The notes beneath the pieces were generated by a model. It was not told the DNA's origin, ran no database searches, and saw nothing but the letters and a program-made list of their open reading frames with translations. A program made the position numbers and the translations under genes. 64,000 nucleotides of DNA. Origin: Clostridia bacterium. GTDB lineage: Bacteria > Bacillota > Clostridia > Monoglobales > Firm-18. Position 1 is the first letter of the stretch, and each line of letters begins with the position of its first letter. Below are positions 26,674 through 35,189 of the stretch, in pieces. The stretch lies in NCBI GenBank assembly GCA_045660545.1, contig JAZREA010000021.1:86503-150502 (forward strand). The letters are read 5' to 3'.

Positions 26674-28665
26674 TTAAGAAACGTCTATCATTTCAAGATA
26701 CTTACCGCCGTTTTTAGCTATATGCTCCTTACGGCCCGAAAGGTTGTCTCCGAGTAAAAGCTCGAACTTCGCCTTAGCAAGCGCGGCGTCGTCCGGCATA
26801 ACGCGTATTAAGCGTCTCGTCTCGGGGCACATTGTGGTTAGCCACATCATATCCGGCTGGTTTTCGCCCAGACCCTTGCTGCGTTGGATTGTATATTTAA
26901 GACCCTCTATTCTGTCCAAAATCTCTGCCTTTTCCGCCTCGGTGTAGGCAAACTCGGTCTTTTCCTCCTTGCCGTCCTTGTAGTTAATTTCAAAAAGCGG
27001 AGACTCAGCGATATATACATAGCCCTTTTCAATCAGCGTCGGAACAAGCCTGTAAAGCATTGTAAGAATCAGCGTTCTTATCTGGAAGCCGTCGACGTCT
27101 GCATCGGTACAGATTATAATCTTGTTCCAGCGCAGGTTTTCAAGCTCAAAGGTGTTAAAGTCCTTGTTGTGCTTTGAACTTGCCTCTACACCACAGCCTA
27201 AAACTCTTAAAAGGTCTATTATAATCTCGCTTTTAAAGATTTTGTTGTAGTCTGCTTTTAAGCAGTTTAATATCTTACCACGAACAGGTATAACCGCCTG
27301 GAACTCGCTGTCTCGTCCAAGCTTACAGCTTGTAAGAGCAGAGTCACCCTCCACGATGTAGACCTCACGCCTTGAAACATCCTTTGTACGACAGTCGGCG
27401 AATTTTGGCACCTTTGAGAGCACGTCGTTGTTGCCTGTTAACATCTTTTTGACGTTGATTCTGGTCTTTTCGGCGTTTTCACGGCTCCTTTTGTTGATAA
27501 GCACTTGGTCTGCTATCTTTTCGGCATCGACCTTGTTTTCGATAAGATAAACGTTTAATGTCTCCTTTAAAAAGTCGGTCATAGCCTCTTGAATAAACTT
27601 GTTCGTTATAGACTTTTTGGTCTGGTTTTCGTAGCTTGTAATTGTCGAAAACGAATTACTTACCAGGCAAAGGCAGTCTTCAATATCCTCAAACTTAATC
27701 TTAGATTCATTCTTTTTATACTTGTCTGTCTGCTTAATATACTGGTCTATCACTGACACAAAAGCGCTTTTAACCGCCCTGTCAGGAGAGCCGCCGTGCT
27801 CCAAAAAGCTGGAGTTGTGGTAGTATTCAGTAAGCGTCACCTCGTTGCTGAAACAAAACGCAACAGAAAGCTTAACCTTGTAGTCCTGCTTGTCCTCGCG
27901 GTCGCGTCCTTTGCGCTCTGTCTCGTAGAAAACGGGCGTGGTAAGCGCCGTTGTAGCAACAAGCTCACCCACATAGTCGATAATTCCGTTTTCGTACAAA
28001 AACTCTTCGTCTTCAAAGTTCCCTTCCGCGTCCTCATAATGCAGAACAAACTTAACGCCCGTGTTAACCACGGCCTGCTTTTTCATAACGTTTAAGAAAT
28101 ATTCACGCGGTATATCTATGTCGGTAAAAACTTCAAGGTCGGGCTTCCAGCGAATCTTACTTCCCGTAGCCTTAAAGCGGGTAGGCTCGGACTGCAAACC
28201 GCCGATGTTTTCGCCCTTTTCAAAGTGCAGCTTGTGGATTTGTCCGTCTCTTCTTACCTCTACGTCCATATATTCCGAAGCGTACTGTGTTGCGCACGCA
28301 CCGAGTCCGTTAAGCCCCAGCGAAAACTCATAGTTTTCTCCGTCGTTGTTGTTATATTTACCGCCCGCGTACATTTCGCAAAAGATAAGCTCCCAGTTAT
28401 AGCGGTTTTCCTTTTCGTTAAAGCCTAAGGGGATACCTCGCCCAAAGTCTTCGACCTGAATACTTCCGTCGTAAAAGCGCGTAACCTCTATAACCTTTCC
28501 GTAGCCTTCTCTCGCCTCGTCGATAGAGTTTGACAAAATCTCAAAGACCGAGTGGCAACACCCGTCAAGGCCGTCCGAGCCGAAGATTACACCCGGGCGT
28601 TTTCTTACTCTGTCGGCGCCTTTTAAAACCGATATTGAGGAATCGTCATATTGATTATTTTTCAT
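26674..28665 (-). CDS. Type IIA topoisomerase subunit B (GyrB/ParE family, probably ParE-like)
   Basis: RVRKRPG, EILSNSIDE, DFGRGIP, GLNGLG, VEGDSA, PVRGKILN, TDADVDG, QRSKGLGE. Confidence 0.9.
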   Translation of the reverse strand: MKNNQYDDSSISVLKGADRVRKRPGVIFGSDGLDGCCHSVFEILSNSIDEAREGYGKVIEVTRFYDGSIQVEDFGRGIPLGFNEKENRYNWELIFCEMYAGGKYNNNDGENYEFSLGLNGLGACATQYASEYMDVEVRRDGQIHKLHFEKGENIGGLQSEPTRFKATGSKIRWKPDLEVFTDIDIPREYFLNVMKKQAVVNTGVKFVLHYEDAEGNFEDEEFLYENGIIDYVGELVATTALTTPVFYETERKGRDREDKQDYKVKLSVAFCFSNEVTLTEYYHNSSFLEHGGSPDRAVKSAFVSVIDQYIKQTDKYKKNESKIKFEDIEDCLCLVSNSFSTITSYENQTKKSITNKFIQEAMTDFLKETLNVYLIENKVDAEKIADQVLINKRSRENAEKTRINVKKMLTGNNDVLSKVPKFADCRTKDVSRREVYIVEGDSALTSCKLGRDSEFQAVIPVRGKILNCLKADYNKIFKSEIIIDLLRVLGCGVEASSKHNKDFNTFELENLRWNKIIICTDADVDGFQIRTLILTMLYRLVPTLIEKGYVYIAESPLFEINYKDGKEEKTEFAYTEAEKAEILDRIEGLKYTIQRSKGLGENQPDMMWLTTMCPETRRLIRVMPDDAALAKAKFELLLGDNLSGRKEHIAKNGGKYLEMIDVS

Positions 28666-28809: not shown

Positions 28810-29451
28810 TTATACATTATGTTGTATTTGAGTAATTAGTCCGTTAAGATGTTCTGTGTTGTTGTATGAATCTACTGTGAACTTGCCGTCTTCATAAGTA
28901 ACATAAGCAAGAGACGCGTTTTTAACCCAACGTTCACCATATTTCATATCGTCAAGAGTCTGGTTATTGAACTTAGTAAGCAGACATTTTACAGGAGTAG
29001 CATGGGTAGCGATAAAGACAGTTTTGCCGTCGTTTTCCTTAGCTATTCTCTCCACTTCGTCGCAAACTCGCTCCAAAAGCTCTGCCACACTCTCGCCGTT
29101 TGTGCACACAGAGTTTCCTACATCTTCGAGCCATACCTTGTAGTCATCTGCAAATATTGTTTCGAGGTCATCAAAGAGGCGGTTTTCCCAGTCGCCAGCA
29201 TATATTTCTCTTAGCTTTTCGCACTTTTCAACATCAAGACCGTGAACATCCGCAACAATCTTTGCTGTTTCGTACGCTCTTTTAAGGTCGCTTGAATAAA
29301 CCTTGTCAATATGTACGTCCTTTAAATATGCCGCAGCCATTCTGGCCTGCTCTCTGCCCTTTTCAGACAATTCCATATCAGTATAGCCTGTAAACGTGTC
29401 AGTATAGTTTCCCATACTTTCTCCGTGTCTTATTATTATTAATTTTGTCAT
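28810..29451 (-). CDS. Histidine phosphatase (PGM-like) family
   Basis: IIRHGES, VYSSDLKRA, LREIYAG, GES, ATH. Confidence 0.9.
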   Translation of the reverse strand: MTKLIIIRHGESMGNYTDTFTGYTDMELSEKGREQARMAAAYLKDVHIDKVYSSDLKRAYETAKIVADVHGLDVEKCEKLREIYAGDWENRLFDDLETIFADDYKVWLEDVGNSVCTNGESVAELLERVCDEVERIAKENDGKTVFIATHATPVKCLLTKFNNQTLDDMKYGERWVKNASLAYVTYEDGKFTVDSYNNTEHLNGLITQIQHNV

Positions 29452-29489
29452 AACAAAACTTCTCCTATTTGCATTTTGGGGGGCGGTTA

Positions 29490-29849
29490 TTAACCTTCGA
29501 TAGCCTTGGTTGCGATGATGTCCGCACCTGTTCCTAAAATATTTTCAATAATCACGCTGTGCATAGCAACAGGAAGGCTTACCTTAACCTTGCGGATTTC
29601 GTCCATGCAGTCAAGAATCAATTCCTTAGGTAACGGCTTGGAAGAACGAACCGGCAAAAGGTCGGACTCTATGCCTTCCATCTTAACTGTTGTAGTCAAA
29701 ATTCTAACAGGATGAGCATACTCTGAGCTTGCGTAGTCAAGACCTCTTTTGCAGCCGTATCCTTCTACTGTGCTAACCTGTTCTCCGTTTCCGTCAACGA
29801 TAATATGACAACCACGTGGGCAGACTGTACAAATGATTTCCTTTTTCAT
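29490..29849 (-). CDS. DUF1667 small Cys protein (putative FeS subunit)
   Basis: ICTVCPRGC...GYGCKRG, PVR. Third gene of the GlpA-like trio. Confidence 0.85.
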   Translation of the reverse strand: MKKEIICTVCPRGCHIIVDGNGEQVSTVEGYGCKRGLDYASSEYAHPVRILTTTVKMEGIESDLLPVRSSKPLPKELILDCMDEIRKVKVSLPVAMHSVIIENILGTGADIIATKAIEG

Positions 29850-31115
29850 TTATTTGTCCTCCTTTACAATCTCAACGGTAACTTCGTTTCCGGAGATTTT
29901 AGAAGAATCGAGTACCATATGATTCATCTCACCCGGATTTACGCGAAATTCTTTCTTTTCAGCAATTACGTTATCTCCACAACGCATTACCAATTTAACA
30001 TTCTCCTGCGGCGCAAGTACGCGGAAGTATACGTCGATTTTCTCATCCTCGTCAGAAAGAGCAACATACTGTGGGCACAAATAGCGAACGTTGTTTCCGC
30101 ATACCATAGCCACATCCTGCTTCTTTTTCGGGAATGTGTTGTTTGCAAAGCGTGCTGCATAAGCACCGGCTCTTTCACTTTCCGTACTAACGTTGTCTAC
30201 AAGGTCGTTAACGTGTACTACGTTACCGCATGCGAACACGCCCGGTGCAGTAGTTTCCATATACTGGTTAACAACAGGTCCGTTAGTTACAGGGTAAATT
30301 TCGATACCTGCTTTGCGTGTGATTTCGTTTTCAGGCATAAGTCCTACCGAGAACAAAACTGTATCACATTCAACAAACTCTTCTTTGTCCAAAATAGGCT
30401 GTTTCTTTTCATCAACAGGCGCTACATAAACGCCCTCTACACGCTCGTCTCCGACGATTCTTGTAATTGTGTGAGCAAGCTTCAACGGAATACCAAAGTC
30501 GTCAAGACACTGTACTCTGTTACGTGTAAGACCTGCGAGGAAGTCCATAAGCTCAACCACCATAACAACCTTAGCGCCTTCCAAAGTCATACGGCGTGCC
30601 ATAATCATTCCGATATCGCCCGAGCCTAAGATAACAACTTTCTTACCAACCATAATGTTTTGACGGTTGATAAGTCTTTGTGCAGCACCCGCTGTGTAAA
30701 GACCTGCCGGACGAGTACCCGGAACCATGATGTTGGCTCTGGTCTTTTCACGACAACCCATTGCAAGAACAATACTTCCTGCGCTTACGCGGGTCATACC
30801 GTACTTGCTGTTTGTTGCGATAACTTCCTTTTTCTCTTCGTCTATGCTAAGCACCATTGAATTTAAAAGTGTTTCTACTTTAAGTTCCTTGGCTTTTTCT
30901 ACAAATCTTGTGTAGTATTCAGGACCTGTAAGCTCTTCTTTAAAGCGCTGAAGTCCAAATCCCGGATGAATACACTGCTGCAAAATTCCGCCCAAAGCGT
31001 AGTCTCTCTCTAAAATAAGAACGTCTTTTGCTCCCTGTTCCTTTGCCGCAATAGCAGCCGCAAGACCCGCAGGACCGCCGCCAATAACAGCTACATCACA
31101 TTTTATTTCATACAT
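29850..31115 (-). CDS. FAD/NAD(P)-dependent oxidoreductase (pyridine nucleotide-disulfide type)
   Basis: IGGGPAGL, GGILQQCIHPGFG, AMGCRE, LGSGDIG, FACGNVVHV. Confidence 0.9.
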   Translation of the reverse strand: MYEIKCDVAVIGGGPAGLAAAIAAKEQGAKDVLILERDYALGGILQQCIHPGFGLQRFKEELTGPEYYTRFVEKAKELKVETLLNSMVLSIDEEKKEVIATNSKYGMTRVSAGSIVLAMGCREKTRANIMVPGTRPAGLYTAGAAQRLINRQNIMVGKKVVILGSGDIGMIMARRMTLEGAKVVMVVELMDFLAGLTRNRVQCLDDFGIPLKLAHTITRIVGDERVEGVYVAPVDEKKQPILDKEEFVECDTVLFSVGLMPENEITRKAGIEIYPVTNGPVVNQYMETTAPGVFACGNVVHVNDLVDNVSTESERAGAYAARFANNTFPKKKQDVAMVCGNNVRYLCPQYVALSDEDEKIDVYFRVLAPQENVKLVMRCGDNVIAEKKEFRVNPGEMNHMVLDSSKISGNEVTVEIVKEDK

Positions 31116-31140
31116 ATCAGCAATACTCCTTTCGGTTGGT

Positions 31141-32580
31141 CTATCGTGTGCTGCCGGTAACCATGTAAGAACCGGCGTTGTTTTTGTTGATATCTGTTGC
31201 CTTTAAATTAAGCTCGCGCGCTAATATTTCGATTACCTTAGGACCGCAGAAGCCTCCCTGACAACGTCCCATACCTGCACGTACGCGGCGCTTAATTGCG
31301 TCTACACTGCGTGCGCCCAAAGGTCTGTGGATAGCGTCAAGAATTTCTGCCTCGGTAATAGTTTCGCATCTGCAAATAACGTTGCCGTATAGCGGATTTT
31401 CACGAACAAGCTCTTCTTGTACTTCAAGAGGCTGTTCACAGAATTTGATAATACCTTTTCTCGTTTTAATAAAGTTGTCCTTTAATACAAATCCTGCACC
31501 TGCCATAAGCATCTGTTCAACAACATACTTACCCATTGACAAAGACAAGGTAAGACCGGTAGAACGAACACCCGAAAGGTTTATGTATCCTTCTAAGTCA
31601 TCATACATATCAAAGTGGAGTCCCTCAGGATTTCTGTTAGGACGAAGTCCGCTGTACTGAGTGATGGTATCTCTGATATTAACGTTTGGAATAAGGTTTC
31701 TTACATCATTAACGATGCTGTCGAGACCTTCCTTGGAGGTAGCCTTGTTAACCTTGGACTCCTGGTCTTCTGCAGTAGGTCCAACGAGCATGTTACCATG
31801 AATAGTCGGGCACATCAACTTACCCTTTGTAATTTTGGTAGGTATTGGAAGAACAATGTACTCTACCTGGCAGGATGTGTTCTTGTCAAGAATAAAGAAC
31901 TGGCCCTTTCTTGCAACAACCTTATAGTCTGCCTTGCCGACCATTTCTGCTATCTCGTCGCAGTAAAGTCCTGCGCAGTTAATAACATACTTAGTCTCTA
32001 TTTCTCCGTTGGTGGTAACAACAGTCTTTACCTTACCGTTTTCCGTAACAATATCTGTTACGCGAGTGTTAAGCATAAACTCTACGCCGTTTGCAAAAGC
32101 GTTTTCTGCCAATGCCTGAACAAAAATAAACGGGTCTATAATACTCTCTCTTGGAATGAACAGACCGCCCTTTACCTCAGGGTTAAGGTTCGGCTCCATT
32201 TCAAGAAGCTCTTTTGCGCTCTTATATTCTATATCGTATACGTGGTTTTTAAACGCCTTTTGCTTAATAGCAGGCAGCTGTTCAAACTGCTCGTCAGTAA
32301 TAGCGGGCAATATAGCACCTATTCTGCTAAACGGTACGTCCAGGTCTTTAACAACCTCATCATACATAGGGTTAGCCGCAACAACAAGCTGAGATTCCAA
32401 AGTTCCCGGAGCCGCGTCATATCCTGTATGAATAATTGCACTGTTAGACTTGGAAGCATCGCCGCCAACATCTTCATTCTTTTCAACTACAATGACGTTT
32501 ACGTTGTACTTTGAAAGTTCTCTGGCAACTGCGCAACCTACTGCACCCGCGCCAATAACCACAACATCGGTTTTTTTCAT
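31141..32580 (-). CDS. FAD-dependent dehydrogenase with BFD-like [2Fe-2S] domain (GlpA/LhgO-like)
   Basis: IGAGAVG, ASKSNSAIIHTG, C-terminal CRCE...GMGRCQGGFC. Confidence 0.9.
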   Translation of the reverse strand: MKKTDVVVIGAGAVGCAVARELSKYNVNVIVVEKNEDVGGDASKSNSAIIHTGYDAAPGTLESQLVVAANPMYDEVVKDLDVPFSRIGAILPAITDEQFEQLPAIKQKAFKNHVYDIEYKSAKELLEMEPNLNPEVKGGLFIPRESIIDPFIFVQALAENAFANGVEFMLNTRVTDIVTENGKVKTVVTTNGEIETKYVINCAGLYCDEIAEMVGKADYKVVARKGQFFILDKNTSCQVEYIVLPIPTKITKGKLMCPTIHGNMLVGPTAEDQESKVNKATSKEGLDSIVNDVRNLIPNVNIRDTITQYSGLRPNRNPEGLHFDMYDDLEGYINLSGVRSTGLTLSLSMGKYVVEQMLMAGAGFVLKDNFIKTRKGIIKFCEQPLEVQEELVRENPLYGNVICRCETITEAEILDAIHRPLGARSVDAIKRRVRAGMGRCQGGFCGPKVIEILARELNLKATDINKNNAGSYMVTGSTR

Positions 32581-32638
32581 ATTTTGATACCTTCCTCTCC
32601 ATCTACTTCAAAGTTTCACTACTAATTACAATAACATA

Positions 32639-32677
32639 TTGTCACAATGTTGTCAATATGTTGTCAACATTTTGTCA
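32639..32677. promoter_or_regulatory. Four TTGTCA direct repeats at exact 11-bp period (operator array)
   Basis: TTGTCA starts at 32639, 32650, 32661 and 32672, 59-97 nt upstream of the dehydrogenase ATG. Confidence 0.75.
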
Positions 32678-32731
32678 AAAAAATACACCTGAATATGTTA
32701 AAATTTCAAGTGTATTTTTCTGTTTGGTCAT

Positions 32732-33487
32732 TTAATCGGCAATAATCACCTTAACACCCATTTTTTCAATGTCGCTCAACATCTTTTTGGGCGCCTTTGA
32801 ATCACAAATCAAAACGTCGATATCCTCTATATCACAAACCTTGCACATAGTCTGTACTCCAAACTTGCTGAAATCCGCAAGCGCTATAACCTGGTTAGCA
32901 TTTTTTACAAGGTAGTTTCGCACAAACGCCTCCTCGGACACAAAGTCGGTAACTCCGTCTGTCGTTATTCCCCCGACACCGATAAACACTTTGTTGAAAA
33001 CAAACTTGTCCATATTATCTATCGTAAACGAGCCTGAAAGCGACAGCTCCTTTGACCTTAGCGTACCGCCGGGAATTATTACCTCGCACCCCTTTTCAGA
33101 AAGTGCTATCGCCGTTCTGATAGAGTTTGTAAAAGCATGGATGTTCTTGCCCTCGTCAAGCTGCTTGGCCAAAAGCAATACGTTTGTACCTATGTCGAAA
33201 AACACTGCGTCCTGCGAATTAATCAGCTTTTCCGCCTCGGTTGCAATAGCGAGCTTTTCGTCATAATTTAAAGATTCCCTGTTTAAGTAGTTTGGCTCTG
33301 CGGTCATAAACTTGTTGCTCGCCGCACCGCCATAGACCTTTTTAATCATACCCTGTTTTTCAAGATACGTCAGGTCTCGCCTTATAGTCTCGATAGATAC
33401 GCCAAGTCTTTTGACGAGCTCCTCGCTTTTTACAGTGCCCTCTGTATTTATTATTTCAGCAATCTGTTTTCTTCTGTCAAGATTCAT
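32732..33487 (-). CDS. DeoR/GlpR family transcriptional regulator
   Basis: HTH VSIETIRRDL, KVYGGA, FFDIGT, TNS, IPGG, DFSKFG. Confidence 0.93.
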   Translation of the reverse strand: MNLDRRKQIAEIINTEGTVKSEELVKRLGVSIETIRRDLTYLEKQGMIKKVYGGAASNKFMTAEPNYLNRESLNYDEKLAIATEAEKLINSQDAVFFDIGTNVLLLAKQLDEGKNIHAFTNSIRTAIALSEKGCEVIIPGGTLRSKELSLSGSFTIDNMDKFVFNKVFIGVGGITTDGVTDFVSEEAFVRNYLVKNANQVIALADFSKFGVQTMCKVCDIEDIDVLICDSKAPKKMLSDIEKMGVKVIIAD

Positions 33488-33511
33488 TCCATTTACTTCC
33501 CTTACAAAAGT

Positions 33512-35038
33512 TTATACGGTATGTAAATATTTTGGTGCAGAAATATCCTTTTTCTCAATTTCCTGGAAAGGATACAGCGGAGAAGGTATTTTACTAAACG
33601 GCAAGTCTTGTAAAACAGGTCCTGCTGCACCGGGAGTAGCTGTGTTGCATACCATATATGATACAGGCTCATATCCTGCACGAAGCGATGTACAAGCCTT
33701 TACAGAAACGACTCTGCACAATGTCGGCTCAATTCCAAAGCCTCTGTAAAACTGTAAGTCTCCGTTGTTCTCAGCGTTGCTTGTTAAAAGAATCTGTATT
33801 TGGCCAACGGTAATTACCGCACACTTGCCCAGATATCTGTACTGTCCACGCTCTGCCGGTCCCTGCATAGTAAATGTTCCTTTGTGAAGGCTCTTAACCT
33901 CTGCGTCTTTAACCAACACAGGCTTGCTGAGCAAAGGAGCTATACTTGCGCCAAGCTCAAAGTCGCCTATTCCGCCGACTCCAAGTTCAAATGCAAGCTC
34001 TATTGCCTTTTTGTCGTTAATGGAAACTGCCGCAGACAAAGTGTCCTTGTAAGGAAGCAGGTGTTCAATAACCGTAGCACAGTCACCACACGCACCCGCG
34101 TTTGGAGAGTCTGCCGAATCTACGATAACCACCGGCTTATCCTCAGGGTTTTTAATAGCCTCTTCGATTACCTCGTCAATCGTCATAAGAGGTTCGCCCT
34201 GTATATCTTCTCTGATATCGAACTCGTCTTCCGCAAGTTCAAGAGCAATCTTCTTAGCTTTCTCCTTGTCATCTGCAACTACAACAACAGTTGATGCAAA
34301 GTCAACAATATCCATCCAAGGCTGTGCCTGGAAAATTGTAAAGTCTATAATTTCCCCGCTGTTTTGCATAGCCCACGCCTTGTCCATAAGCTCTTTAAGC
34401 TTGCCCTTTGATGTGGTGTATGCGTGAGCAGGTGCTATAACGGGAATCCTTACGGTGCAAGCGTACATCTGCTTTCCCTCAACCTTATCCATCGCCAAAG
34501 ACGCCGCACGGCAGCCCACTTCGTAGTGGTCGATGTGCGGATATGTACGGTAACCGCATACAAAGTCCACGTTGTTAGCAAACTTGTCGGTTATGTTAGC
34601 GTGCAAATCGCAGGAAGCCGCAATCACAACGTCGTCACCAACCAAAGAACGAATGCTCGACAAAATGTCTCCGCAAACGTCGTCGCTTACATCAGAAACC
34701 GTAGCTCCGTGTAGCGAAACCACAACCGCATTAAGCGGAAGCGCTTCTTTAATAGCTTTTAGAGTCTTCTCTACAAAGCCGTCAACAACCTCGTGGCTGA
34801 CAGGAGCGCCACTTTTCGCTCTCATACGGATACCGCCGATAGCTGTATACTCCCTTTTCTTCAAGGTTTCAAGCATACCTCTTACCGTCTCTCCCGCCTT
34901 GCCGTTAGAGTTTACAAGATCTTCGCCCTCGTATATTCCTGCGCGCACAAAGTCATCATACTTTGCAAGCACAGGATTAAATGAGTTGGATTCCTGCAAA
35001 AACTCACAAACAAAAACCCTCTTTAACTGTTTGTCCAT
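33512..35038 (-). CDS. M81 family metallohydrolase (MlrC-like)
   Basis: ESNSFNP, LHGA, DLHAN, YRTYPHID, DSADSPNAG, VKAC motifs. Confidence 0.87.
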   Translation of the reverse strand: MDKQLKRVFVCEFLQESNSFNPVLAKYDDFVRAGIYEGEDLVNSNGKAGETVRGMLETLKKREYTAIGGIRMRAKSGAPVSHEVVDGFVEKTLKAIKEALPLNAVVVSLHGATVSDVSDDVCGDILSSIRSLVGDDVVIAASCDLHANITDKFANNVDFVCGYRTYPHIDHYEVGCRAASLAMDKVEGKQMYACTVRIPVIAPAHAYTTSKGKLKELMDKAWAMQNSGEIIDFTIFQAQPWMDIVDFASTVVVVADDKEKAKKIALELAEDEFDIREDIQGEPLMTIDEVIEEAIKNPEDKPVVIVDSADSPNAGACGDCATVIEHLLPYKDTLSAAVSINDKKAIELAFELGVGGIGDFELGASIAPLLSKPVLVKDAEVKSLHKGTFTMQGPAERGQYRYLGKCAVITVGQIQILLTSNAENNGDLQFYRGFGIEPTLCRVVSVKACTSLRAGYEPVSYMVCNTATPGAAGPVLQDLPFSKIPSPLYPFQEIEKKDISAPKYLHTV

Positions 35039-35189
35039 AGTTATAACTCCCCCTATATCCCTTAAATAATTAATAAATTAACCCCATAGGAATTTGCATA
35101 TTTATTCTACAACAAAACAAATGACTTGTAAAGACCCTATTTTTATGGTACTATACATATGTAGTTATTAATAATACGGATGTGATTGT

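Follow-up and report, generated by a model that had tools for sequence, protein, structure and literature searches.

A predicted FngABC-type glycerol-3-phosphate oxidoreductase locus linked to an M81 hydrolase in a Clostridia genome without glycerol kinase

The 64,000-nucleotide stretch of contig JAZREA010000021.1 that was analysed here (the window; Clostridia bacterium, assembly GCA_045660545.1, positions 86,503 to 150,502) contains a six-gene block that encodes an M81 (MlrC-like) hydrolase, a DeoR-family regulator, a trio of flavin adenine dinucleotide (FAD)-type and iron-sulfur subunits and a histidine phosphatase. Judged by its sequence, the trio is the Clostridial form of FngABC, the ferredoxin- and nicotinamide adenine dinucleotide (NAD)-dependent sn-glycerol-3-phosphate (G3P) oxidoreductase, and thus an enzyme of a known kind. 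Judged by its nearest relatives, its predicted substrate is almost certainly G3P and not a new polyol. New are the conserved operon of predicted FngABC and M81 in genomes without glycerol kinase, a pair formed by an FGGY kinase and M81, and the loss of gpsA in the genome of the window (G000; 1.55 Mb, 96.6% complete).

Identity and substrate of the trio

The products of PF2005-2007 of Pyrococcus furiosus were purified as FngABC by Schut, Poole & Adams (Biochemistry, October 2026; PMC13689815). The P. furiosus enzyme is a soluble heterotrimer that contains two FADs, a [2Fe-2S] cluster in subunit A and a [4Fe-4S] cluster in subunit C, and electron bifurcation coupling NAD(H), ferredoxin and G3P/dihydroxyacetone phosphate (DHAP) was demonstrated for it (PMC13689815). 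The reaction of DHAP with 2 NADH and oxidised ferredoxin proceeds at 5.0 U/mg and that of G3P with NAD+ and reduced ferredoxin at 2.5 U/mg; no uncoupled reaction is catalysed (PMC13689815). In the same study about 35% of the FngA homologues, mostly from Clostridia, were assigned to the FngABC class (PMC13689815).

The corresponding genes of the window are the following:
31141..32580, minus strand: fngA, 479 amino acids; DAO PF01266 227 bits, Fer2_BFD PF04324 54 bits
29850..31115, minus strand: fngB, FAD/NAD(P)-binding subunit, 421 amino acids; Pyr_redox_2 PF07992 130 bits
29490..29849, minus strand: fngC, DUF1667 subunit with candidate [4Fe-4S] ligands, 119 amino acids; PF07892 105 bits

The trio is assigned to FngABC because its domain set, its gene order and the spacing of its cluster cysteines match those of the P. 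furiosus enzyme. FngA combines an FAD-dependent oxidoreductase (DAO) domain with a C-terminal BFD-type [2Fe-2S] domain that contains four cysteines (Cys403/405/440/445), spaced nearly as Cys407/409/448/453 of P. furiosus FngA. FngB displays two GxGxxG motifs and is of the Pyr_redox_2 type, not GlpB. Its gene adjoins fngA, which it always follows in related loci; 80 such loci, with an FngA 74-88% identical to that of the window, were collected by scanning one genome per species, and almost all of them come from gut and rumen Clostridia. The gene for FngC is the sole DUF1667 gene of the genome, and the spacing of Cys7/10/14/33 equals that of Cys9/12/16/35 in P. furiosus FngC. A first-pass annotation of this DNA had already likened the trio to three-subunit G3P dehydrogenases, and the domains, the gene order and the match to FngABC bear this out. 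The same annotation left the cluster unassigned, which no longer holds: the trio matches a characterised complex (PMC13689815) and groups tightly with copies that are linked to glpK.

The P. furiosus complex, which is also the G3PDH/NOX/MOX complex of Thermococcus kodakarensis, is encoded by three adjacent genes that share their order and domains with the trio of the window. However, the P. furiosus operon also carries glpK and a glycerophosphodiesterase gene, and the genome of the window has neither, be it in the operon or elsewhere. Instead, the M81 hydrolase, the DeoR regulator and the histidine phosphatase are found at the window locus. In GlpABC of Escherichia coli the A subunit is homologous to FngA (FAD and BFD domains), whereas GlpB and GlpC are unrelated to the B (Pyr_redox_2) and C (DUF1667) subunits of the window. 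GlpABC is quinone-linked, whereas FngABC is soluble and linked to ferredoxin and NAD. A further likeness to E. coli, namely to its GlpR regulon, is the combination of a DeoR-family repressor and tandem operator repeats, although the operator in the window is a predicted one; glpT, glpQ, glpF and glpK of the E. coli set are not present in the system of the window. An E. coli-type GlpABC was rejected, as the GlpA models are missed by a wide distance (TIGR03377: 141 versus 553; NF008313: 105 versus 425) and the GlpB/GlpC partners are absent. An opine/proline-type dehydrogenase and an L-2-hydroxyglutarate oxidase were also considered for the A subunit, and both were rejected in view of its closeness to glpK-linked FngA copies.

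The gene content of the 80 loci was tallied by tblastn and then mapped onto an FngA tree. In the basal grade of the tree (74-78% identity) the arrangement is DeoR-EutH-GlpK-FngABC or a variant of it, and the kinase is a true GlpK (679 bits versus a cut-off of 590). The derived clade comprises 59 rows, including the window, and most of these carry M81. Inside this clade two loci encode a GlpK that scores 607 bits against the same cut-off: in L064 the gene directly follows fngC, and in L046 it lies one gene further, after a CofE-like gene. L064 and two M81-linked loci are sisters on the tree, with a support of 100% in the Shimodaira-Hasegawa-like approximate likelihood ratio test. The glpK-fngABC operons of Clostridia, Thermotoga and Acetobacterium (L064, L046 and L076-L094) share the upstream DeoR gene and the subunit order with the window locus. 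They contain a true GlpK and often an EutH-type permease, whereas the clade of the window mostly has M81 instead, in hosts without GlpK. It is because of the 74-84% identity to FngA copies encoded beside a true GlpK, and because of their interleaving on the tree, that G3P is taken as the substrate of the window enzyme.

In the reading proposed by the first-pass annotation, M81 would cleave an amide-linked conjugate and the trio would then oxidise the compound set free, a (phospho)polyol or hydroxy acid that is not G3P. In agreement with this, 32% of the FngABC loci were reported to have no nearby glycerol genes, and other polyols were assumed as their substrates (PMC13689815). The window locus has no glycerol genes either, and in about 8 of the related loci M81 is followed by an EryC-like AP_endonuc_2 gene of the triose-phosphate isomerase (TIM)-barrel type. 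However, the FngA of the window is 83-84% identical to GlpK-followed copies inside the derived clade, and L064 is nested among M81-linked loci with full support. A change of substrate is therefore unlikely, and the proposal as a whole is regarded as highly improbable. Two outcomes had been named in the annotation as contrary to it: the grouping of the trio with glpK-linked G3P dehydrogenases is indeed found, whereas the co-occurrence with M81, which was to be lacking, stays conserved. For FngABC loci without glycerol genes, a G3P-like clade tied to an M81 hydrolase is thus an alternative to the assumption of other polyols.

Several other genes recur around the related loci. An EutH-family "ethanolamine" permease gene is located within DeoR-EutH-GlpK-FngABC operons at the place where GlpF would be expected (L083, L085, L088, L091, L093), and its product may be a glycerol uptake protein there. 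A module of gamma-glutamyltranspeptidase, SSF symporter and AraC regulator flanks glpK-fngABC on either side (L076, L077, L078, L084, L085, L087) in Clostridium/Lachnospiraceae-type genomes, which places a second amide-cleaving family beside FngABC. A CofE-like gene (F420-0:gamma-glutamyl ligase family, 398 amino acids) without an NCBIfam match follows fngC or M81 in 14 of the 80 loci, for example at L086:12118-13314 and L046:3149-4345, in hosts that are not expected to make F420. The AP_endonuc_2 TIM-barrel gene, with a weak CbiR-like match, occurs in about 10 of the 80 loci and a CehA-like PHP metallohydrolase in 8. Finally, a second FngABC clade, 31-39% identical to that of the window by tblastn, was observed in L007-L011 and L013 (G002, G040, G020, G016, G005, G026). 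These genomes have no GlpK, and a HAD-IIA phosphatase gene (phosphoglycolate/G3P-phosphatase type) usually lies two to three genes off, which hints at a route from G3P to glycerol.

Conservation and setting of the M81 hydrolase

33512..35038, minus strand: M81 (MlrC-like) zinc hydrolase, 508 amino acids; PF07364 252 bits, PF07171 124 bits

The M81 protein is predicted to be an intact cytoplasmic zinc hydrolase. The zinc ligands E39, D167, H169 and H191 of MlrC correspond in the alignment to its residues E16, D144, H146 and H168, which are invariant in 30 homologues, and the N terminus of the M81 protein was judged by eye to be without a signal-like segment. The AlphaFold2 model (predicted local distance difference test score of 91.6) superimposes on PDB entries 3IUU and 7YLQ with template modelling scores of 0.82-0.92 (0.89/0.92 to 3IUU). 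Both Pfam domains (the DUF1485 N-domain and MlrC_C), the fold and the E/D/H/H ligands are shared with MlrC (MEROPS M81; PDB 7YLQ) and with the Mesorhizobium protein 3IUU. The identity is, however, only about 24%, and the genes stand in operons of a G3P dehydrogenase or a sugar kinase in strict gut anaerobes, not in an mlr peptide-degradation cluster. The microcystinase MlrC equivalog was rejected (NF041767, 141.7 bits versus a cut-off of 999). A Foldseek search of the PDB with the model returned nothing beyond 3IUU and 7YLQ, so that the fold adds no clue to the chemistry. In a protein atlas the M81 sequence retrieved M81 clusters only, and no relative was found in the metagenome contigs that were scanned with it.

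The association of M81 with the trio, which had been noticed at this single locus, turned out to be a conserved one. In 35 of the 80 related loci the distance between M81 and fngA is no more than 7 kb, and in at least 25 loci M81 directly follows fngC on the same strand; the window differs in that M81 is located upstream of deoR. On the M81 tree the Fng-linked genes fall into two clades (12 and 23 rows), which mirror two FngA subclades, and each of them is sister to M81 genes of other settings that follow an FGGY kinase gene. M81 relatives are rare in general (14 of 399 class-level genomes at E <= 1e-40). Copies about 50% identical to that of the window are part of DeoR-FngABC-M81 operons in G040, G146 and G123. 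All four sampled genomes with FngABC and M81 (these three and G000, each at least 96% complete) are without GlpK, whereas those with only the FGGY-M81 pair (G202, G279) do carry it.

The other recurrent setting of M81 is this pair. Paralogs 40-49% identical to the M81 of the window stand directly behind an FGGY kinase gene in five loci:
L100:7136-10125, FGGY kinase-M81 pair (the two genes overlap by 4 bp)
L102:7350-10498, FGGY kinase-M81 pair
L103:6589-9811, FGGY kinase-M81 pair
L105:7205-10262, FGGY kinase-M81 pair
L106:4228-7226, FGGY kinase-M81 pair

These kinases belong to a distinct FGGY subfamily and are 36-47% identical among themselves and only 22-27% to GlpK; they are XylB-like, at scores under the cut-off. 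The neighbouring genes encode DeoR regulators, class-V aminotransferases, transporters of the Opp, Liv, DcuC and AspAlEx types, a malic enzyme and a LarA-type racemase. The setting of Clostridial M81 genes is consequently one of sugar-type kinases and DeoR loci, not of peptidase genes. In the genome of the window no partner FGGY kinase for M81 was found, the best match being 26% identical to the M81-coupled kinases. The earlier suggestion of a sugar or polyol conjugate as the target of M81 agrees with the paralogs behind FGGY kinases in DeoR-controlled loci; the part of it that is not borne out is a polyol or hydroxy acid other than G3P as the oxidised substrate. With the FngABC operon and the FGGY pair, the M81 family gains a concrete metabolic setting that can be tested.

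Glycerol 3-phosphate supply, loss of gpsA and a proposed pathway

Among the proteins of G000 none scores above the cut-off for GlpK. The best match to TIGR01311 reaches 182 bits versus 590, and this protein scores highest against the XylB model, there also under the cut-off. The whole genome likewise holds no match for an MIP channel (GlpF), a GDPD-type glycerophosphodiesterase, GlpT, UgpB or the C-terminal domain of GpsA (PF07479). A classical glycerol utilisation operon was rejected, as both glycerol kinase and facilitator are lacking. PlsY, which needs G3P, is present (TIGR00023, 156 bits).

Three relatives share the gene order der-plsY-gpsA. G000 retains der and plsY, whereas gpsA is missing from the site (contig C8:50681-54858, L113); plsY is followed there by an unrelated open reading frame of 669 codons that has no NCBIfam match. 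No remnant of gpsA was found anywhere in the genome. An assembly gap was rejected as the cause, since the contig continues for 5 kb past der-plsY and contains no N bases. Relatives from the same family all possess GpsA (21 of 21). The sole PF01210 match of G000 is an octopine-dehydrogenase-like protein of 369 amino acids with a weak GpsA-type N-domain. Its gene (C18:37186-38292) follows that of an EutH-type permease, opposite an AraC regulator (C18:35977-38292 for the whole site, L095:280-2598), was found in none of 25 relatives and so counts as a gain of this genome, and could be part of another pathway.

By its sequence FngABC is the only recognisable DHAP/G3P enzyme of G000. A biosynthetic role of FngABC, from DHAP to G3P, is plausible by analogy, because DHAP reduction proceeds well with the P. 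furiosus enzyme and PlsY requires the product. The term "catabolic", which had been given to the cluster, has thus become uncertain: with gpsA gone, the formation of G3P may fall to FngABC. G000 is a natural case in which to ask if a bifurcating enzyme for G3P can take over from GpsA in lipid synthesis.

The occurrence of GpsA and FngC was cross-tabulated by hand from two tables covering 399 genomes of the class Clostridia. FngC is found in 45 of the 67 genomes without GpsA (67%) versus 131 of the 332 genomes with it (39%). The odds ratio is 3.1 with a Fisher p of 4e-5, which is overstated as the genomes are related to each other. Whole families display the pattern of FngC without GpsA; in family f24, for example, GpsA is found in 0 of 7 genomes and FngC in 7 of 7.

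Taken together, these observations suggest a pathway that is considered probable as a whole, if with moderate confidence. FngABC would interconvert G3P and DHAP, with electron bifurcation as the link between NAD(H) and ferredoxin, and the DeoR protein would repress the fng promoter. In genomes that lack glycerol kinase, M81 would accompany this FngABC clade as a conserved accessory and would most likely replace GlpK as the "feeder" of FngABC. The enzyme would act on a conjugate with an amide or ester bond, probably one already phosphorylated, and by hydrolysis release G3P or an immediate precursor of it. Candidates for the conjugate, as a matter of speculation, are glycerol phosphate esters with aminoacyl or acyl groups that arise in the turnover of lipids or teichoic acids. 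In G000, FngABC would probably also convert DHAP, 2 NADH and oxidised ferredoxin to G3P for lipid synthesis. A broader version is put forward tentatively and is possible rather than probable: the M81 proteins of gut Clostridia would in general be hydrolases of phosphorylated polyol or sugar conjugates, acting downstream of an FGGY kinase or, in place of GlpK, upstream of FngABC, where they would draw G3P from an unrecognised glycerol-phosphate conjugate, and FngABC would have displaced the near-universal GpsA as the source of G3P for membrane lipids in the reduced genome of the window.

A number of points weigh against the proposed pathway. The octopine-dehydrogenase-like enzyme could be a real substitute for GpsA. 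The enrichment of FngC in genomes without GpsA is inflated by kinship among the genomes. The replacement of gpsA is specific to G000; G040, G146 and G123 keep GpsA and have a GDPD. For a biosynthetic source of G3P, regulation by a repressor that responds to G3P as inducer would be awkward. Completeness of the genome stands at 96.6%, and other types of transporter could be present. About 45% of the related loci have no M81, and a CofE-like gene, a TIM-barrel gene, a PHP-type hydrolase, GlpK or nothing is found in its place; M81 is not obligatory for this FngABC clade. To our knowledge, MlrC is the only characterised M81 enzyme, and it is a peptidase that acts on linearised microcystin.

The last two points also favour a rival explanation, in which M81 is a cytoplasmic peptidase functionally unrelated to the trio that travels with a horizontally mobile DeoR-fngABC cassette. 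This explanation can further draw on the high identity of FngA across families (85-88%), compared with only 39-61% for M81, and on the position of M81 upstream of deoR in the window. However, it has to contend with the same-strand position of M81 directly after fngC in so many loci, with a link that is kept in two M81 clades mirroring the FngA subclades and that survived rearrangement in G000, and with the nearest non-Fng relatives of M81, which are encoded in DeoR/kinase loci and not in peptidase loci. It is accordingly judged unlikely, and the feeder role of M81 is preferred.

Gene layout, regulation and the phosphatase

The remaining features of the block are the following:
35104..35132, minus strand: promoter-like site TTTACA-17-TAGAAT upstream of the M81 gene; consensus match only
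32732..33487, minus strand: DeoR-family regulator, 251 amino acids; HTH_DeoR PF08220 69 bits, DeoRC PF00455 150 bits
32676..32722, minus strand: 18-bp hairpin that leads into a U tract, a probable terminator for M81-deoR; folding
32634..32677, minus strand: four head-to-tail 11-bp TGACAAnnnnn repeats, candidate DeoR operator and fngA promoter; pattern match
28810..29451, minus strand: histidine phosphatase (branch 1), 213 amino acids; His_Phos_1 181 bits
28772..28803, minus strand: terminator-like hairpin with a 13-bp stem and a T run, ending the fngABC-phosphatase unit

All six open reading frames lie on the minus strand between 28810 and 35038, and their assignment by Pfam and NCBIfam confirms the genes and coordinates of the first-pass annotation. 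Its statements that the M81 and DeoR genes are co-oriented at a spacing of 24 bp and that the cluster contains no glpK, glpF or transporter gene are correct as well. Its single cluster can be refined into two predicted transcription units, M81-deoR and fngA-fngB-fngC-phosphatase, because a strong hairpin follows deoR and a predicted promoter lies in the TGACAA repeats before the trio. The hairpin has a folding energy of -19.4 kcal/mol (z -6.99), and none of 200 shuffled sequences was as stable. The gap between deoR and the trio measures 151 bp; fngB starts 25 bp after fngA, and the histidine phosphatase gene is located 38 bp after fngC.

The four repeats overlap two TTGACA -35 boxes, and the fourth, read from the sequence, is TGACAAAATGT at 32667-32677. 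The extended repeat pattern has three matches in the window, all in the promoter region of fngA. In 77 related loci TGACAA and TTGACA are the commonest hexamers in the 176 bases before fngA, and TGACAA occurs in 48 of them, typically as two to four repeats at a spacing of 10-11 bp. A DeoR gene is located just upstream of fngA in 50 of the 75 loci with enough upstream sequence. These patterns make it probable that the four TGACAA repeats are bound by the DeoR protein, which would thereby repress the fng promoter. Named DeoR equivalogs were rejected, the best NCBIfam matches, AgaR (189 versus 260) and haloarchaeal GlpR (184 versus 300), being under their cut-offs.

The histidine phosphatase had been counted as part of the cluster. 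Its link to the trio is private to the genome of the window: no equivalent follows fngC in the 80 related loci, and its closest relatives, 44-48% identical, show no synteny with the flanks of the window (the ParE-like gene) in four relatives. The latter result also led to the rejection of the phosphatase as a conserved flank gene of the ParE-like gene. The genome encodes three such paralogs, this protein included, and the named equivalog models stay under their cut-offs (CobC 138 versus 163, PspA 135 versus 350, GpmB 78 versus 261).

The phosphatase is central to another rival explanation, a redox valve. FngABC would reduce DHAP and the phosphatase would turn the G3P into excreted glycerol, which would dispose of NADH and yield reduced ferredoxin for a hydrogenase, with M81 as a bystander. 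Such a valve would be in keeping with the faster rate of the DHAP- and ferredoxin-reducing reaction of the P. furiosus enzyme in vitro, with the lack of GlpK and GlpF for glycerol use in G000, with the closeness of the phosphatase gene to fngC and their shared terminator, and with the HAD-IIA phosphatase two to three genes from the second FngABC clade in relatives without GlpK. However, the tie between the phosphatase and this FngABC clade is limited to G000, spending a phosphorylated triose gains no ATP, and the conserved links to M81 and DeoR are left unexplained. We think it improbable that the block serves as such a valve, and FngABC acting on G3P with M81 as its feeder is retained as the preferred explanation.

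On one side the block is flanked by housekeeping genes (topA-like, trmFO, rpsB and tsf, together with a convergent rnhA) and on the other side by a GyrB/ParE-like gene. The latter adjoins the cluster at 26674-28665 (minus strand) and encodes a type IIA topoisomerase B subunit of 663 amino acids that falls under every GyrB/ParE cut-off (508 versus 740, 494 versus 882 and 428 versus 900). From these scores it appears to be a divergent paralog or a lineage-specific form.

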